Shown piece by piece: positions 3,015 through 9,156 of a DNA stretch of 32,832 bases. The stretch comes from a virus. A model generated the notes under the pieces. It saw only the letters and a list, made by a program, of their open reading frames with translations. It was not told the origin of the DNA and ran no database searches. The stretch is taken from UHGV virus genome UHGV-0377831. One strand, given 5' to 3'. Both the position numbers and the translations under genes were made by a program. The first letter of the stretch is position 1; every line of letters starts with the position of its first letter.

Positions 3015-3090
3015 GGCCCTTTAGCTCAGTGGTGAGAGCGAGCGACTCATAATCGCCAGGTCGCTGGTTCAAATCCAGCAAGGGCCACCA
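3015..3090 (+). tRNA. tRNA with anticodon CAU, most similar to tRNA-Ile2 (ileX/ileZ type); tRNA-Met not excluded
   Basis: Cloverleaf: acceptor GGCCCTT/AAGGGCC, D-stem GCTC/GAGC, anticodon loop CTCATAA, T-loop TTCAAAT, encoded CCA. Near-identical to E. coli ileX as I recall it. Confidence 0.88.
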
Positions 3091-3097
3091 TCACATA

Positions 3098-3174
3098 CCG
3101 CCATTAGCTCATCAGGAAAGAGCGCCAGCCTTCGAAGCTGGCTGCGCGGGGTTCAAGTCCCCGATGGCGGTCCA
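3098..3174 (+). tRNA. tRNA-Arg (anticodon UCG)
   Basis: Acceptor CCGCCAT/ATGGCGG, anticodon stem CCAGC/GCTGG with loop CTTCGAA, T-arm CGGGG-TTCAAGT-CCCCG, encoded CCA. Confidence 0.85.
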
Positions 3175-3187
3175 TTATCTGCATCAT

Positions 3188-3264
3188 GCGTTGTTAGCTC
3201 AGCCGGACAGAGCAATTGCCTTCTAAGCAATCGGTCACTGGTTCGAATCCAGTACAGCGCGCCA
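3188..3264 (+). tRNA. tRNA-Arg (anticodon UCU, decodes rare AGA/AGG)
   Basis: Acceptor GCGTTGT/ACAGCGC, anticodon stem ATTGC/GCAAT with loop CTTCTAA, T-arm ACTGG-TTCGAAT-CCAGT, encoded CCA. Same Ile/Arg/Arg tRNA trio and position as in Stx-type lambdoid phages. Confidence 0.88.
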
Positions 3265-3371: not shown

Positions 3372-3728
3372 GTGTTGATTGAGTGTTTGTTATACGGTCT
3401 AATGGTTTTTTCAGCATTAAATATTTATCATTCATATGGTGTGGGTAGAGTGAATATTGATGACGCGTCGGGGTGTTTCATCCTTAGGCAGCGTATTGAT
3501 ATAGTCAATGCAGAACGAGCAAAGGCCTTCAGCCGTTTGACAGTTTTGTTCTGTACTCCTGATCGTCTTTCGGGAAGAGACGTTATTATTCTGAATAGTG
3601 ATGCTATACAGAGGGTTTGCGATGAGTTCATGGTGGCTAATTCAGAATTATTTGCTCTTGTTCAGGAGTACAACAGAATAGCCAGGACCTGTGGTATGGA
3701 TGAACTTCGGATTACTCATCTGGGGTAG
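3372..3728 (+). CDS. Hypothetical protein (cargo ORF downstream of the tRNAs)
   Basis: 118-aa ORF from a GTG (an ATG at 3402 would give 108 aa) in a lower-GC segment; no recognisable domain. Occupies the slot where Stx phages carry stx. Confidence 0.4.
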   Translation: MLIECLLYGLMVFSALNIYHSYGVGRVNIDDASGCFILRQRIDIVNAERAKAFSRLTVLFCTPDRLSGRDVIILNSDAIQRVCDEFMVANSELFALVQEYNRIARTCGMDELRITHLG

Positions 3729-3808
3729 ATACATATCTGGATTATCACCGGTTACGGTAAAAAGTGATTGCTTACTGTTTTTGTGAATGGCATTGCAGCA
3801 GCCGGATA

Positions 3809-3895
3809 ATGTCAGTGCTGGCTGACGGTGTGCTGGTGGCGGGTGTGGTGGTTGCTGCTTTCCCGTTGCTGAAAAAGAAAACGCCAGACTGTTAG
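3809..3895 (+). CDS. Possible 28-aa hydrophobic peptide (MSVLADGVLVAGVVVAAFPLLKKKTPDC)
   Basis: ATG-initiated short ORF encoding one hydrophobic helix with a KKK tail, resembling small membrane toxin peptides. No clear RBS; could be spurious. Confidence 0.2.
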   Translation: MSVLADGVLVAGVVVAAFPLLKKKTPDC

Positions 3896-4175: not shown

Positions 4176-4511
4176 TTATGGACTTTGTTGTTTTAGCCCA
4201 TAAGGACATATTTGCAGAGTGCAACGGTTATTAAAGCATTCATTCAATACGTTATCTGTATTTGTAGGGCATTCCTGGCTGTTTTTGATTAAATTCCAGA
4301 ATGTTTTATTGAATGGTACTACGTTGTAAATGGTTACAGGTAGCACTTTGTTATTGAGCATGATACCTGTGTGAGTCAGTGTAAATATACTTTCAGGAGG
4401 TAAGAAAGCATCCGATTGATACCAGATTATTAATTTTATTTTACTCCATATGACTGAAAAAGATATTCCGCATGATGGCTGGATAACTGTATCAATCACA
4501 ATCCACTTCAT
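4176..4511 (-). CDS. Hypothetical protein, AT-rich cargo gene on the opposite strand to the late operon
   Basis: 111-aa ORF with ATG start and an AAGGAAA RBS about 6 nt upstream on the minus strand; markedly lower GC than the flanks; product not recognised. Confidence 0.5.
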
Positions 4512-5267: not shown

Positions 5268-5483
5268 ATGTACCAGATGGAAAAAATCACAACAGGTGTG
5301 TCATACACCACGTCAGCGGTGGGAACGGGCTACTGGTTCCTGCAGTTGCTGGACAGGGTTTCCCCGTCTCAGTGGGCGGCAATAGGCGTGCTGGGGAGTC
5401 TGCTGTTTGGGCTGCTGACATATCTGACTAACCTGTATTTCAAAATCAAAGAGGACCGGCGTAAGGCGGCGCGGGGAGAGTAA
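5268..5483 (+). CDS. S: Class II holin (pinholin), phage 21 S type, with dual-start motif
   Basis: [71 protein letters not shown] matches S21/Stx-phage holins; two Met codons (M1, M4) typical of holin/antiholin dual starts. The upstream extension in the ORF track (5163-5267) is probably not translated. Confidence 0.9.
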
Positions 5484-5487
5484 AGTG

Positions 5488-6378
5488 ATGAATAAAAAAT
5501 ATGAACTGGTTGTTAAGGGGATAAATAATTACGGGGATAAGGTTACTGTTACTGTGAAGCCGGAAGGTGACGGGCAAGCGTCGCTGTTGTTGCCAGATGT
5601 GGCGATTAGTCTTGACCGTACTGAAGGTGCCACGCTGGAGTTTTACGAAGCTGAGGCGAAAAAGCAGGCGAAGCAGTTTTTCATGGATGTTGCTGCCGGG
5701 TTATGTGAAGGGGATGGTCCGTTGCCGGAAAAGCGCCCCGTAATTTTAGAGGCGCAGGATGTGTTGATAACCTACAAAGGAAAGCTACCGGGAAGAATTA
5801 CTTGTTCTCTGAAGATGCCGCCGTCAACACTGCGGTCAGAAAAAGATGATGTTGAATCACGTATTGAAAAACTGGAGAGCTACGTCGTTGAGCTGAATAA
5901 GAAATGGTCGATATTGGTGCCTTCTGGCGATGAAAAGCAGTTTGCTGCGTTTGACGATTATTGTCGGAAAGTGATGAGCAGAAATCTCGCAGAGTGTTTC
6001 AGTATTCATAATGATAATTTCAGTGACCCGGAATGGGAGTGTAACCGGCCATCCTTTGTTGTATCCGGTGATGCTGGGAAAATAACCATCTCAGAAAATG
6101 GGAAAGTAACACCTCCATCGCACCAGCACAGTGAGGAGCTCATTGAATTTGCCATTGATTACCTGAAGAACAATAAAAAGCAGGGGCTGATGAAGCGCGT
6201 TGGCCGTTGCATGGGATATCTGCAGGTAGCTGCTGAGATTGAAGCGCTGGCCAGTGGTGCTGATAAGGATGCAATTGTGCGGGAGGCTCTTCTTCGTGAT
6301 TTTAATACTCCACCCTTTAAAAAAGTGCCGGCTTACTGGCTTCATCCGGGGCTGACTTATCTTAAAGTGCGTATTTAG
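5488..6378 (+). CDS. Hypothetical 296-aa soluble protein inserted between holin and endolysin
   Basis: ATG at 5488 (GTG at 5485) with a GGGGAGAG RBS 8 nt upstream; starts 4 nt after the holin stop; no signal peptide, transmembrane segment or recognisable catalytic motif; AT-rich 5' end. Confidence 0.7.
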   Translation: MNKKYELVVKGINNYGDKVTVTVKPEGDGQASLLLPDVAISLDRTEGATLEFYEAEAKKQAKQFFMDVAAGLCEGDGPLPEKRPVILEAQDVLITYKGKLPGRITCSLKMPPSTLRSEKDDVESRIEKLESYVVELNKKWSILVPSGDEKQFAAFDDYCRKVMSRNLAECFSIHNDNFSDPEWECNRPSFVVSGDAGKITISENGKVTPPSHQHSEELIEFAIDYLKNNKKQGLMKRVGRCMGYLQVAAEIEALASGADKDAIVREALLRDFNTPPFKKVPAYWLHPGLTYLKVRI

Positions 6379-6414
6379 TGGGCCAGGGACAGCGGCTGAA
6401 TATTTAATATATCC

Positions 6415-6948
6415 ATGAACACCAAAATCAAATACGGCCTGTCGGCTGCCGTTCTGGCGCTGATTGCCGCTGGTGCGCCTGCGCCTGACATTCTCGACCA
6501 GTTTCTGGATGAAAAGGAAGGCAAGCACACCACAGCATACCGTGATGGTGCAGGTATCTGGACCATCTGCCGTGGTGCCATCATGGTGGATGGCAAACCT
6601 GTCGTTCCGGGCATGAAGTTGTCGAAGGAAAAATGCGACCAGGTTAACGCCATTGAGCGTGATAAAGCGCTGGCGTGGGTGGAGAAAAACATCAGAGTGC
6701 CGCTGACCGAACCCCAGAAAGCGGGGATCGCGTCATTCTGTCCGTACAACATTGGTCCCGGTAAGTGTTTCCCGTCGACGTTTTACAGACGAATTAATGC
6801 TGGTGATCGAAAAGGTGCCTGCGAAGCGATTCGCTGGTGGATTAAGGACGGTGGCAGAGACTGCCGTATTCGTTCAAACAACTGTTACGGTCAGGTATCC
6901 CGTCGTGACCAGGAGAGCGCGCTGGCGTGCTGGGGTATCGACAGATAA
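6415..6948 (+). CDS. R: SAR endolysin (phage lysozyme, RrrQ/YdfQ-like)
   Basis: 177-aa protein with an N-terminal signal-anchor-release segment (GLSAAVLALIAAGAPAP) and the lysozyme motif EGKHTTAYRDGAGIWTICRG; closely resembles the E. coli Qin prophage lysozyme as I recall it. Confidence 0.92.
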   Translation: MNTKIKYGLSAAVLALIAAGAPAPDILDQFLDEKEGKHTTAYRDGAGIWTICRGAIMVDGKPVVPGMKLSKEKCDQVNAIERDKALAWVEKNIRVPLTEPQKAGIASFCPYNIGPGKCFPSTFYRRINAGDRKGACEAIRWWIKDGGRDCRIRSNNCYGQVSRRDQESALACWGIDR

Positions 6949-7104
6949 GCAGAATATTTTGCTGAAAAATGAGGAATGGCCACGCGGGCGGATAACACGA
7001 AATCCTGCGAACTGGCGAAACGTAAGTGAATAAAAGTAAAAACCCCGTTTGTTGGCACCAAGCGAGGTTTTGTGTTTCTGACCTTGAGTAAGGCAAGGGA
7101 GAAC

Positions 7105-7287
7105 ATGGCGAAGTGTAAACGAATTCTGTTGAGGTTGACTATGAAAAATGGCCTTGAACTGAAAGCGCCTGTAACTGATGACATCAGCAGAGCACTGGCT
7201 TTTGCCATTAAGTGGGTGGCGGTCGGTGTTGCTGTGTCCCCGATGCTGTATGGGCTGGCAAAACTGGTCATTGCGTTGAAATCGTGA
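7105..7287 (+). CDS. Small hypothetical membrane protein (60 aa)
   Basis: ATG with an AAGGGAG RBS; hydrophobic segment [27 protein letters not shown]. The ORF track starts it at an upstream GTG (7072). Confidence 0.45.
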
Positions 7288-7301
7288 AGGGAGGATTAAG
7301 C

Positions 7302-7433
7302 ATGTCAGACAAACTCATAACGCTGGCGAAGATCCTCTGTGTAATTGTCGGCATTTCATTTTCACTAATGCTGGTTGCTCTTTTTCTTTCCATGGCCTGG
7401 ATGATGTTGTCTTCGTCGGGGTTGCTGGGGTGA
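7302..7433 (+). CDS. Small hypothetical single-pass membrane protein (43 aa)
   Basis: ATG at 7302 with a strong GAAGGGAGG RBS; product [43 protein letters not shown]; its stop overlaps the Rz start. Confidence 0.5.
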
Positions 7434-7903
7434 ACATAAACCGAATGCTTTCCGCGTTTATCGTTATTCTGCTGGTGGCCTGTGGTGCGCTGTGGATGGC
7501 AACAGACCATTACCGTGATAACGCGATTACCTACAAAGCGCAGCGCGATAACAAAGCCAGTGAACTGAAGCTGGCGAACGCAACCATTACTGATATGCAG
7601 GTGCGCCAGCGCGATGTTGCTGCGCTCGATGCAAAATACTCGAGGGAATTAGCCGATGCGAGAACTGAAAATGAAACTCTTCGCGCTGACGTTGCCGCTG
7701 GTCGTAAGCGCCTGCGGATCAACGCCACCTGTCCAGGCTCCGTGCGTGAAGCCCCCACCACCTCCGGCGTGGATAATGCAACCGGCCCCCAACTGGCAGA
7801 CACCGTTACACGGGATTATTTCACCCTCAGAGAGCGGCTGATGACGATGCACAAGCAACTGGAAGGGGCACAGGACTATATCCGCACTCAGTGCCTGAAA
7901 TAA
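7430..7903 (+). CDS. Rz: Spanin inner-membrane subunit Rz
   Basis: Aligns with lambda Rz ([15 protein letters not shown]..., [13 protein letters not shown]...). GTG at 7430 or ATG at 7442. Confidence 0.92.
7656..7841 (+). CDS. Rz1: Spanin outer-membrane lipoprotein subunit Rz1 (embedded in the +1 frame of Rz)
   Basis: LPLVVSAC lipobox and the proline-rich [22 protein letters not shown] motif as in lambda Rz1. Confidence 0.85.
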
Positions 7904-8214
7904 GTTTTGTTGATGCGCCGTATCGTCGCTATATTCCCTCATTAACAGAGACCGCAGCCCGACAGGGAGACTCCTCTGCGCGAGTGTGCGGGGATAATTA
8001 AAAACGATGCACACCGGGTTTTTTACCGCGTTAATGATTCGCGGGTTTATCCCGGTGCGATGGTGGAAGAAACAGGAAGCTGTATTACAGAAAGTGCTAC
8101 TACTGTATCCCGATGCGATGTATGTAATGTGAGTCAGATAATGGCACAGGATGTGGTGATGTGGCAGTCTGGAACACAGGATATATTGTCAGAATAAGAC
8201 CCGTAGGAATAAAA

Positions 8215-8541
8215 ATGAAAAGACGCCTTTTACTACTTTTTCTGTTATCTGTCCTGGCAGTGGGATGCTCGCAGCAAAAAGCTGATGAGCCCCGGCAATT
8301 AGTGACGGTGTATCCACGATATCCGGAATATGCTGCAGCAAATTATATCAAGGGGCTGGTTGAGGTTAAGTTCGATATTGGTGCTGATGGGACTGTGACA
8401 CGGATCGTTTTTCTCCGCTCAGAGCCTCATAATTTGTTTCGTGATGAAGTGGTGAAGGCCATGGCGAAATGGCGATTTGAAAAGAATCGCCCCTGTCAGG
8501 GAGTGAAGAGACAATTTATCTTTACGCCGTCACGTCCTTGA
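8215..8541 (+). CDS. Small lipoprotein with a TonB C-terminal-like domain (moron)
   Basis: Signal peptide with lipobox (MKRRLLLLFLLSVLAVGC); the remainder (YPRYPEYAAANYIKGLVEVKFDIGADGTVTRIVFLRSEPHNLFRDEVVKAMAKWRF) matches the TonB C-terminal domain pattern. Confidence 0.7.
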   Translation: MKRRLLLLFLLSVLAVGCSQQKADEPRQLVTVYPRYPEYAAANYIKGLVEVKFDIGADGTVTRIVFLRSEPHNLFRDEVVKAMAKWRFEKNRPCQGVKRQFIFTPSRP

Positions 8542-8663
8542 TGCTTCCAGGTAGAGAGGGGCTGGACGCAGGAGAAAAATGAAAGAGCCAGCGGTTATAT
8601 TTTTGTCATGGCTGACGAGGAATGATGGAAGAAGGCGTTGTATGCCACACAACGCCTCACTGT

Positions 8664-9156
8664 TCATTTCTTCTTTTTCTCTGGTGGAACCCGATGAATA
8701 AGAGTTGCACTGGTTTCCGATGAGATGGCGATATACTCGGGCAAAGTATGCTGGCAGTTTTCCAACTGGTCAAAAATACCTGCTCTCGTCTGTTGCAATG
8801 CCTGCAGCATGCGGCGGCAATGCGCCTTGCTTTTACTAACCATCTTTCCTTCCTCTATCAGTCGCTGCGTGAACTCATCATGTAATACCAGGTAAATGCG
8901 GATGTTATCGGTTTTGGCTACGCAGCATAGTACAAAACGGACAGGTGCATCCCGGGACGGGGGAGGCGTCACATGTCCCTGTGATGGTTGTTCCGGGTAA
9001 TGCACTGTGTGGGGCATAAAAATGTCCGATAATTTTACTTTCTACCGCAGTTAGTTGATTCGTTGGTCCTGGTAGCACATTGGGCGAGGATTTAAATGCC
9101 AGGCAACTGAAGGATGATGTTGCAAGGGAGATAGCGAGAATATTTCTGATTTTCAT
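8664..9156 (-). pseudogene. Possible frameshifted gene for a secreted protein near the right end (same slot as the lambda complement-strand ORF upstream of cos)
   Basis: Two overlapping minus-strand ORFs in different frames (9156-8905 with signal peptide MKIRNILAISLATSSFSCLA; 9017-8664) that would together give about 164 aa. Family assignment uncertain; could also be two genuine genes. Confidence 0.35.

Follow-up and report, generated by a model that had tools for sequence, protein, structure and literature searches.

Two very short genes lie between the endolysin gene R and the spanin gene Rz of a lambdoid Escherichia coli prophage of the 933W/Shiga toxin (Stx) type, and they are very probably real genes for membrane proteins. 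The DNA analyzed (UHGV virus genome UHGV-0377831, 32,832 nucleotides, hereafter the window) carries the pair, called ORF1 and ORF2 (ORF, open reading frame), inside its lysis cassette. Both genes had already been catalogued as hypothetical proteins and are very common. The new findings are that the interval between R and Rz appears to be a hot-spot always populated by interchangeable tiny membrane proteins, that ORF1 is apparently mobile and associated with a hairpin, that it may have a dual start, and that Rz has a better-supported start codon than the annotated one. The two proteins most likely tune the membrane steps of lysis, a reading that is held tentatively and weighed against its alternatives below.

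Two small membrane-protein genes in the lysis cassette

The first-pass annotation had placed two small membrane-protein ORFs at 7105-7433, in a gap of about 480 bp between the endolysin and Rz. These limits coincide exactly with the ATG of ORF1 and the stop codon of ORF2, and the gap measures 481 bp from the end of R (6948) to the GTG of Rz (7430). The genes are tightly packed on the late strand, with 14 nt from the ORF1 stop to the ORF2 start. Strong ribosome-binding sites had been claimed for both, and this held in part. The ORF2 string, GAAGGGAGG at 7286-7294, stands 7 nt from its ATG, which is a good spacing, but the ORF1 string, AAGGGAG at 7095-7101, is only 3 nt from ATG 7105, which is short and poor. 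The single hydrophobic helix predicted in each protein was recovered. The best 19-residue Kyte-Doolittle mean was 2.89 for ORF2, a strongly hydrophobic helix, and a weaker 1.88 for ORF1, near the value for the signal-anchor-release (SAR) segment of R (1.74).

Several lines of evidence support both ORFs as genes. ORF1 matched PHROG 1115 over residues 1-60 (E = 3.7e-42) and ORF2 matched PHROG 4906 over residues 1-43 (E = 2.1e-23). Both are families of unknown function, and RefSeq lists both ORFs as "hypothetical proteins". The ratio of nonsynonymous to synonymous change (pN/pS) was 0.22 in frame for ORF1, versus 1.92 and 0.63 off frame, and 0.52 in frame for ORF2, versus 0.66 and 1.16 off frame; the corresponding values for Rz and R were 0.38 and 0.12. 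For the 28-codon core of ORF1 in nine diverged loci, pS was 0.65 and pN 0.29, a ratio of 0.45 compared to 1.29 and 1.53 off frame, bearing in mind that pN/pS cannot distinguish the sense frame from the antisense frame with common third positions. Judged from these substitution patterns, both genes are under purifying selection. The openness of the ORFs across copies was not decisive, as the antisense frame and one off-frame sense reading are open too and the selection of copies was circular.

The homologues have a narrow range, with ORF2 found in Escherichia and ORF1 in Escherichia and Salmonella. Within that range they are abundant. ORF2 relatives were present in 276 phage records, mostly of Stx phages and mostly unannotated, and ORF1 relatives in 14. 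Among 5,426 complete E. coli genomes, ORF2-like DNA was found in 1,750, with up to 11 copies each, and ORF1-like DNA in 1,598. Many E. coli chromosomes match the region 6350-7950 at 100% identity. Identity is 88-95% with the plaque-forming phages PhiR12/PhiR5, in which both genes are present, and with many Stx-converting phages.

A homologue of ORF2 also appears in published ribosome profiling of E. coli O157:H7 Sakai. XECs191 (MMGWLMISDKLITLVKSLCVLVGISFLVMLVAIFFSTAWRVLTLSGLVG) has the same sequence as ORF50 of phage BP-4795 and shares 67% identity with ORF2. It was reported as a "novel gene" with, in LB medium, an RNA value of 30.0 reads per kilobase per million (RPKM), a ribosome RPKM of 12.6 and a coverage of 0.55, and was predicted to be an inner-membrane protein with one transmembrane (TM) helix (Hücker et al. 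2017, PMC5597208). Members of the ORF1 family and of a third family described below, gamma, were not found in the supplement of that study (PMC5597208). Conservation and ribosome profiling were the two grounds on which the first-pass annotation had allowed that its prediction could fail. The ORFs are conserved in related lysis cassettes, so the prediction does not fail on the first; on the second, the ORF2 homologue has a signal, although a weak one.

The two proteins are conserved in different parts. Every copy of ORF2 seen has exactly 43 codons. Residues K4, V16, G17, S19 and F20 are invariant, as is the VGISFS at the centre of the TM helix, and the C-terminal third is highly variable. Two lysines (K4 and K10) lie N-terminal of the helix. 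ORF1 has a basic N-terminus, with eight basic residues preceding its best hydrophobic window, followed by a conserved C-terminal hydrophobic helix. Its C-terminal 34 residues are almost invariant, and its N-terminus is variable or replaced among relatives. By the positive-inside rule, both proteins are predicted to be oriented N-in. An AlphaFold2 model of ORF1 from a 14-sequence alignment gave a short helix (residues 2-14) and a long one (23-59), with a mean predicted local distance difference test score of 73. The model consists of helices alone and was uninformative.

ORF1 may be made in two forms of 60 and 48 residues, the longer with an extra basic N-terminal arm. Two forms are plausible because a GAGG before Met13 is conserved and because the 12-codon extension upstream of Met13 is conserved at the protein level (pN/pS 0.43). 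Met13 (ATG 7141) is nearly invariant and is the start residue of many database members. The GAGG lies 5-9 nt upstream of it in nine of nine diverged ORF1-family loci. The string is TGAGGTTG in eight of the nine and uses the rare Arg codon AGG, with neighbouring codons varying synonymously. The Salmonella copy has TGGAGGCC at this place, encoding SVEAN and not LRLT. ATG 7105 and ATG 7141 each have a Shine-Dalgarno-like sequence, and the extension carries K3, K5, R6 and R10.

An 8-codon upstream ORF, ATGGGTAGGGAGGTGCTTCCCCTGTGA, precedes the ORF1 relative in loci L054 (about 3800-3840) and L089 (about 3430-3467). It has its own AAGGGAG site, and its end coincides with the GTG at which the ORF1 relative starts. 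The window is without it through a deletion of about 26 nt, which joins the AAGGGAG site directly to ATG 7105.

At the other end of the pair, ORF2 had been said to end exactly at the start of Rz. It does so if Rz begins at GTG 7430, with which the ORF2 stop codon (TGA, 7431-7433) overlaps as GTGA, but RefSeq places the Rz start at ATG 7445. Two related loci, L060 and L081, carry ATT at the position of the RefSeq start codon yet keep the GTG, and on this comparison GTG 7430 appears to be the better-supported start and the overlap is favoured with it. The ATA at 7436-7438 of the window is ATG in other relatives.

The R-Rz interval and the spread of ORF1

Loci related to the window were fetched by Rz similarity. 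There were 80, of which 73 hold both R and Rz, and these 73 represent a single lineage with Rz 83-99% identical. The interval was occupied in all 73 and R abutted Rz in none. Each of the 73 had at least one tiny TM gene between R and Rz, drawn from three unrelated families: alpha, which is the ORF1 family and has a 50-residue relative, alpha' (PHROG 4493); beta, the ORF2 family; and gamma (PHROG 6632). The first-pass annotation had started from the statement that Rz normally follows R directly. This is true of lambda and of the K-12 prophages DLP12 and Qin but of no locus in the lineage of the window.

Eight arrangements were seen. Alpha+beta, as in the window, was found in 37/73 loci and gamma alone in 15/73. 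Gamma+beta with a 231-residue Ant-like gene and ant+beta (the BP-4795 type) each accounted for 5/73. Three loci each had gamma+beta followed by the C-terminal part of alpha and alpha', alpha' alone, or ant+beta+alpha' with a methylase, and the remaining two had alpha+beta with a methylase. The modules besides the small TM genes comprise two kinds of antirepressor and two DNA methylases. In every arrangement examined, the ORF just upstream of Rz ends 0-8 nt before the Rz start. That ORF is a small TM ORF in six of the eight arrangements and a methylase in the two methylase-containing classes.

The copies of ORF2 seen were confined to this slot and came from phages of Escherichia and Shigella. 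Fragments and rearranged copies also exist: ORF2 can have a C-terminal piece of ORF1 behind it, class G holds an ORF1 fragment, and P0094 is a frameshift fusion. P0094 was found on one assembled contig and has 83 residues, namely the first 30 of ORF2, a frameshifted linker and the conserved C-terminal domain of ORF1. The fusion is natural and goes back to the arrangement with an ORF1 fragment behind ORF2.

Judged from this pattern of replacement, the slot is a recombination hot-spot and ORF1 and ORF2 are accessory cargo there. The argument from position made in the first-pass annotation is weaker than was assumed, given the antirepressors and methylases in the slot and the occurrence of the ORF1 family after tail genes.

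The search for ORF1 relatives outside the slot used a family profile against 1.84 billion representative proteins. It returned 22 hits, all small and all of the same family or fragments of it, with no link to a known family; a scan of the family alignment against genome contigs found nothing. In six of nine distinct arrangements the ORF1 relative adjoins an endolysin on its downstream side. Four types of endolysin are involved, namely two lysozymes (R of E. coli and a second type that has its own holin type), an M15 peptidase and an enzyme resembling chitinase. The relative follows the second lysozyme type and precedes a methylase and Rz in L087, lies between lysozyme and Rz in L089, and follows the chitinase-like endolysin directly before a 59-residue lipoprotein in L090. 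In L095 (phiSTEC1575-Stx2k), the M15-peptidase endolysin is upstream with one 93-residue ORF between, and a 60-residue lipoprotein is directly downstream. Three further copies are in tail regions. The one in L086 comes immediately after a gene for a tail fibre, and the one in L088 separates the major tail protein from the tail assembly chaperones. The Salmonella copy (L093) follows gpJ, a tail fibre and a DUF4376 gene and has terminators on both sides.

The lipoproteins that follow the ORF1 relative in L090 (3465-3799) and L095 (2480-2837) carry a lipobox (LLTGC or LLVGC), and neither of these two unrelated cassettes showed an Rz-like gene. The ORF1 relative and the lipoprotein may be an unrecognised pair, or the lipoprotein may be a small o-spanin-like or exclusion lipoprotein. 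A spanin pair made of ORF1 and the lipoprotein was considered and dropped, as ORF1 has no periplasmic domain.

A GC-rich hairpin with A and T runs lies 35-65 nt upstream of the ORF1 relatives in all seven other contexts, with a folding energy of -19 to -23 kcal/mol and with differing inner stem sequences. The window hairpin is weakened in comparison (Table 1). On its distribution, ORF1 is best described as a mobile cassette that moves together with a bidirectional terminator-like hairpin upstream of it. Within the slot in E. coli, all eight arrangements have about 90 nt of conserved non-coding sequence and then a hairpin, which is of either of two types. The hairpin therefore belongs to the slot at least as much as to ORF1.

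The conserved non-coding sequence, directly 3' of R, is nearly invariant across the eight arrangements and contains a small inverted repeat, GGATAACACGAAATCC. It had no Rfam match and could be a recombination linker or a 3'-untranslated-region element. The whole spacer between R and ORF1 is 156 bp, and its folded stability was not unusual (z = -0.97).

Possible functions of ORF1 and ORF2

Neither ORF matched an entry in Pfam, NCBIfam, PADLOC, a PDB sequence search or Rfam. A sub-threshold similarity of ORF2 to DUF3930 (E = 0.08) was treated as chance. The entries that are sequence homologues of the same size and position (PHROG 1115/4493, 4906 and 6632, BP-4795 ORF50 and XECs191) include none with an assigned function. 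A literature search by sequence, accession and topic found no functional study of either protein; a paper on Pantoea PA1-LRP concerns an unrelated protein. The first-pass annotation had suggested antiholin-like lysis timers, lysis inhibitors or exclusion factors, a reasonable interpretation whose premise of adjacent R and Rz does not hold for the lineage of the window.

Expression gives some guidance. A consensus scan of the + strand from 6300 to 8700 found no sigma-70-like promoter, although a weak or non-sigma-70 promoter could escape such a scan. No promoter was seen by eye between the hairpin and ORF1 in six loci, or on the coding strand of L093. Given that no promoter was recognised, that ORF1 is preceded by a terminator-like hairpin and that the stop of ORF2 overlaps the start of Rz, ORF1 and ORF2 are probably expressed from the Q-antiterminated late transcript, together with Rz and Rz1.

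The most likely explanation is that ORF1 and ORF2 are late, non-essential inner-membrane peptides that tune the membrane steps of lysis. Helix-helix contacts within the inner membrane are a plausible mechanism, and the partner could be the pinholin, the Rz anchor or R through its SAR segment. The step affected could be the time or sharpness of pinholin triggering, the SAR endolysin's release or the action of the spanins. Candidate sites for such contacts are, in ORF2, the invariant G17xxxS21 face and, in the ORF1 helix, a conserved Lys/Arg36. A function in lysis is favoured by the position in the late operon and the coupling to Rz. It is also favoured by the finding that none of the related cassettes lacks a tiny TM gene and that three unrelated families replace one another there, as is typical of lysis genes, and by the placement of ORF1 relatives after endolysins of four types. 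Additional small membrane proteins in lysis have precedents in LydD of phage P1 (PMC9025707) and the releasin of phage Mu (PMC9239132). The copies in tail modules are compatible with a lysis function, because antiholin-like genes adjoin a tail-fibre gene in phage CSP1 (PMC13577005). We would put the chance that the function concerns lysis at somewhat less than even.

Several observations weigh against this explanation. No characterised holin, antiholin, releasin, spanin or defence family was matched by either ORF. The constraint on ORF2 is only moderate, 0.52 in frame against 0.66 in one off-frame reading. The profiling signal of XECs191 is weak, comes from uninduced cultures and may include reads common to the many prophages of Sakai. 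In DLP12 and Qin, R is followed directly by Rz, and Qin has the same holin and lysozyme types as the window; by this comparison the small genes are dispensable for lysis as such. The antirepressors and DNA methylases in the slot are clearly non-lysis cargo, and the tail-fibre and major-tail positions of ORF1 relatives are typical sites of morons (discussed below). Finally, as the sample is one lineage, the constant presence of a small TM gene may reflect shared descent.

Comparison with known lysis regulators gave partial likenesses. Antiholins (lambda S107, phage 21 S71, T4 RI and the CSP1_021 set) are small membrane proteins that time lysis through holin contacts. In lambda and phage 21 they arise from a dual start that adds positive charge, a principle that the possible dual start of ORF1 would resemble. 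However, it is the holin gene itself that yields, as an alternative product, the antiholin of lambda and of phage 21, and ORF1 is not a holin gene; T4 RI has a periplasmic domain, and no homology of either ORF to antiholins was found. The Mu releasin gp25 (DUF2730), a single-pass membrane protein encoded a few genes from a SAR endolysin, governs the enzyme's release from the membrane (PMC9239132). It is oriented N-out/C-in with a 73-residue acidic cytoplasmic domain, whereas ORF1 and ORF2 are predicted N-in and have almost no soluble domain. They also lack a Pfam match to DUF2730 (PF10805), and at 43 and 60 residues they have basic N-termini and a C-terminal or central helix. Nor do they look like i-spanins, in which a long periplasmic coiled-coil domain follows an N-terminal TM helix, or like o-spanins, which are lipoproteins with a lipobox cysteine: neither has a lipobox, and no more than about 10 residues extend past the helix of either one. 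Rz and Rz1 are separately present.

Another possible explanation is that the two genes are morons, that is, lysogenic-conversion or exclusion genes which might block DNA entry or protect the envelope, and that the lysis cassette is merely an insertion hot-spot. Lambdoid morons, such as the gene for the HK97 gp15 exclusion protein, are extra genes between conserved neighbours, often encode small membrane proteins and are often bounded by terminators. Presence and absence between conserved flanks is what the eight slot variants display, with antirepressors and methylases as other accessory cargo. ORF1 relatives occupy classic moron sites, after tail-fibre genes and within the tail module, and the terminator-flanked Salmonella copy looks like an autonomous unit. 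The window has further accessory neighbours, a TonB_C lipoprotein at the bor position and IraM, and the ORF2 homologue gave its signal in uninduced Sakai cultures. Morons, however, have their own promoter and are expressed from the prophage, and no promoter-like site was found between the hairpin and the ORFs in the window or on the coding strand of L093. Instead of a terminator downstream there is a hairpin upstream, and ORF2, whose stop overlaps the Rz start, is translationally joined to Rz and built into the late lysis operon. PADLOC defence families were unmatched at E values up to 1. ORF1 relatives follow endolysins of four types far more often than random insertion would give, and lysis-modulating genes can adjoin tail-fibre genes too (PMC13577005). 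A moron function is rather unlikely on this evidence but is the main rival.

The proteins could also be additional hole-formers, acting as extra holins or pinholins beside the phage-21-type holin. The precedent is LydD of phage P1, a small holin-like protein (pinholin) encoded in the operon of the SAR endolysin Lyz in a phage that has another holin, where it is accessory and condition-dependent (PMC9025707). Like LydD, ORF1 and ORF2 are extra small membrane proteins beside a SAR-type endolysin. ORF2 has an invariant face of small residues (G17, S19 and S21), and two starts, as may exist in ORF1, are a hallmark of holins. Unlike the holin gene of the window itself, which was matched and is complete, neither ORF matched a holin family in Pfam, PHROGs or NCBIfam, and no sequence similarity to LydD was detected. 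The charged C-terminal tail typical of holins is also missing, as ORF2 ends in SSSGLLG and ORF1 in ALKS, which carry little or no charge. Extra hole-formers therefore seem improbable. We give a similarly low weight to the idea that the products have little or no function, being recombination debris or linkers, with translation of ORF2 serving mainly to deliver ribosomes to the weak GTG of Rz. The moderate constraint on ORF2 and its variable C-terminal third would suit this idea, as would the fragments and rearranged copies and the invariably short distance (0-8 nt) between the upstream ORF and Rz. It is difficult to reconcile with the purifying selection on ORF1 over deep divergence (0.45 at a pS of 0.65), with its near-invariant 34-residue C-terminal domain, or with the 43 codons and invariant core of ORF2 in every copy seen. 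Moreover, all three unrelated families encode a TM helix, which mere coupling would not need. Type I toxins, with an antisense RNA ending at the bidirectional hairpin, are very improbable. In size and hydrophobicity the proteins resemble such toxins, the hairpin, flanked on either side by A and T runs, could terminate a leftward RNA, and one promoter-like site was found on the opposite strand inside the Salmonella copy. This site matches at 9/12 positions, where chance alone would give 0.6 such sites, and the E. coli copies do not conserve its -35 element. No promoter for a toxin mRNA was found, Rfam was unmatched, and the genes are embedded in an operon with Rz.

A broader form of the proposed lysis-tuning role would make alpha, beta and gamma an interchangeable, previously unrecognised fourth component of the pinholin/SAR-endolysin/spanin cassettes of Stx/933W-type phages. 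They would be regulators that time the firing of the pinholin or the release of endolysin or spanin, and hence the release of toxin and phage, with ORF1 produced in two forms from its conserved dual start. We consider this broader form unlikely as a whole.

The prophage context and its significance

The coordinates of the lysis region are given in Table 1. The description of SAR endolysins has been given to Stx-phage endolysins of the type of R (PMC8136144; PMC9239132).

Table 1. Features of the lysis region in the window and the evidence for each.
Feature	Position	Strand	Evidence or remark
Class II holin, phage-21-type (pinholin type), 71 aa, Met1/Met4 dual start	5268-5483	+	Pfam PF04971, E 7e-33; RefSeq "class II holin family protein"
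DUF1327-containing ORF, 297 residues	5485-6378	+	Between holin and R
Lysozyme R with N-terminal SAR-type segment	6415-6948	+	Pfam PF00959, E 3e-24; segment weakly hydrophobic
Non-coding sequence, about 90 nt, directly 3' of R stop	6949-7038	+	Kept in all eight slot variants (alignment)
Terminator-like GC hairpin, flanked by A and T runs	7039-7078	+	Stem with one C.A mismatch; -12 kcal/mol
ORF1, 60 aa	7105-7287	+	PHROG 1115; RefSeq WP_001446668.1
ORF2, 43 aa	7302-7433	+	PHROG 4906; RefSeq WP_001280932.1
Rz (i-spanin)	7430-7903	+	Pfam PF03245, E 5e-47
Rz1 (o-spanin lipoprotein), embedded in Rz	7656-7841	+	Pfam PF06085, E 4e-20
Lipoprotein with TonB C-terminal domain (TonB_C)	8215-8541	+	Occupies the lambda bor position

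Several neighbouring genes were noted. The ORF between the holin gene and R has an N-terminal DUF1327 (YdfR) domain with a long extension and matches PHROG 1085 end to end (E = 2e-188). RefSeq annotates only its first third, as an incomplete pseudogene, and many length variants exist among related loci. The TonB_C lipoprotein belongs to a family, phrog_1267, that PHROGs labels "Rz-like spanin". This looks like a mislabel because Rz and Rz1 are already present upstream. Just upstream of the lysis cassette, the ORF at 4176-4511 on the - strand is annotated by RefSeq, in an identical prophage, as the IraM anti-adapter, a host-regulatory accessory gene. Three tRNA genes are clustered at 3015-3264 (+), with the anticodons CAT (Met according to ARAGORN, Ile according to RefSeq), Arg-TCG and Arg-TCT. 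As in Stx phages, the antiterminator gene is on one side of them and the lysis genes are on the other, and the tRNA-Arg(TCT) could read the invariant rare AGG codon of ORF1.

About one in three complete E. coli genomes, and most of the Stx phages that have been sequenced, carry relatives of these genes, often unannotated, and the operon that holds them is the one that sets the moment at which the cell bursts and phage and toxin are released. If they do not tune lysis, they are ordinary accessory cargo of a hot-spot, and the practical gain is better annotation, namely the likely GTG start of Rz and the possible internal start of ORF1. If they do, they would offer a simple, testable handle on Stx release and a new case of tiny membrane peptides regulating the holin, endolysin and spanin machinery.

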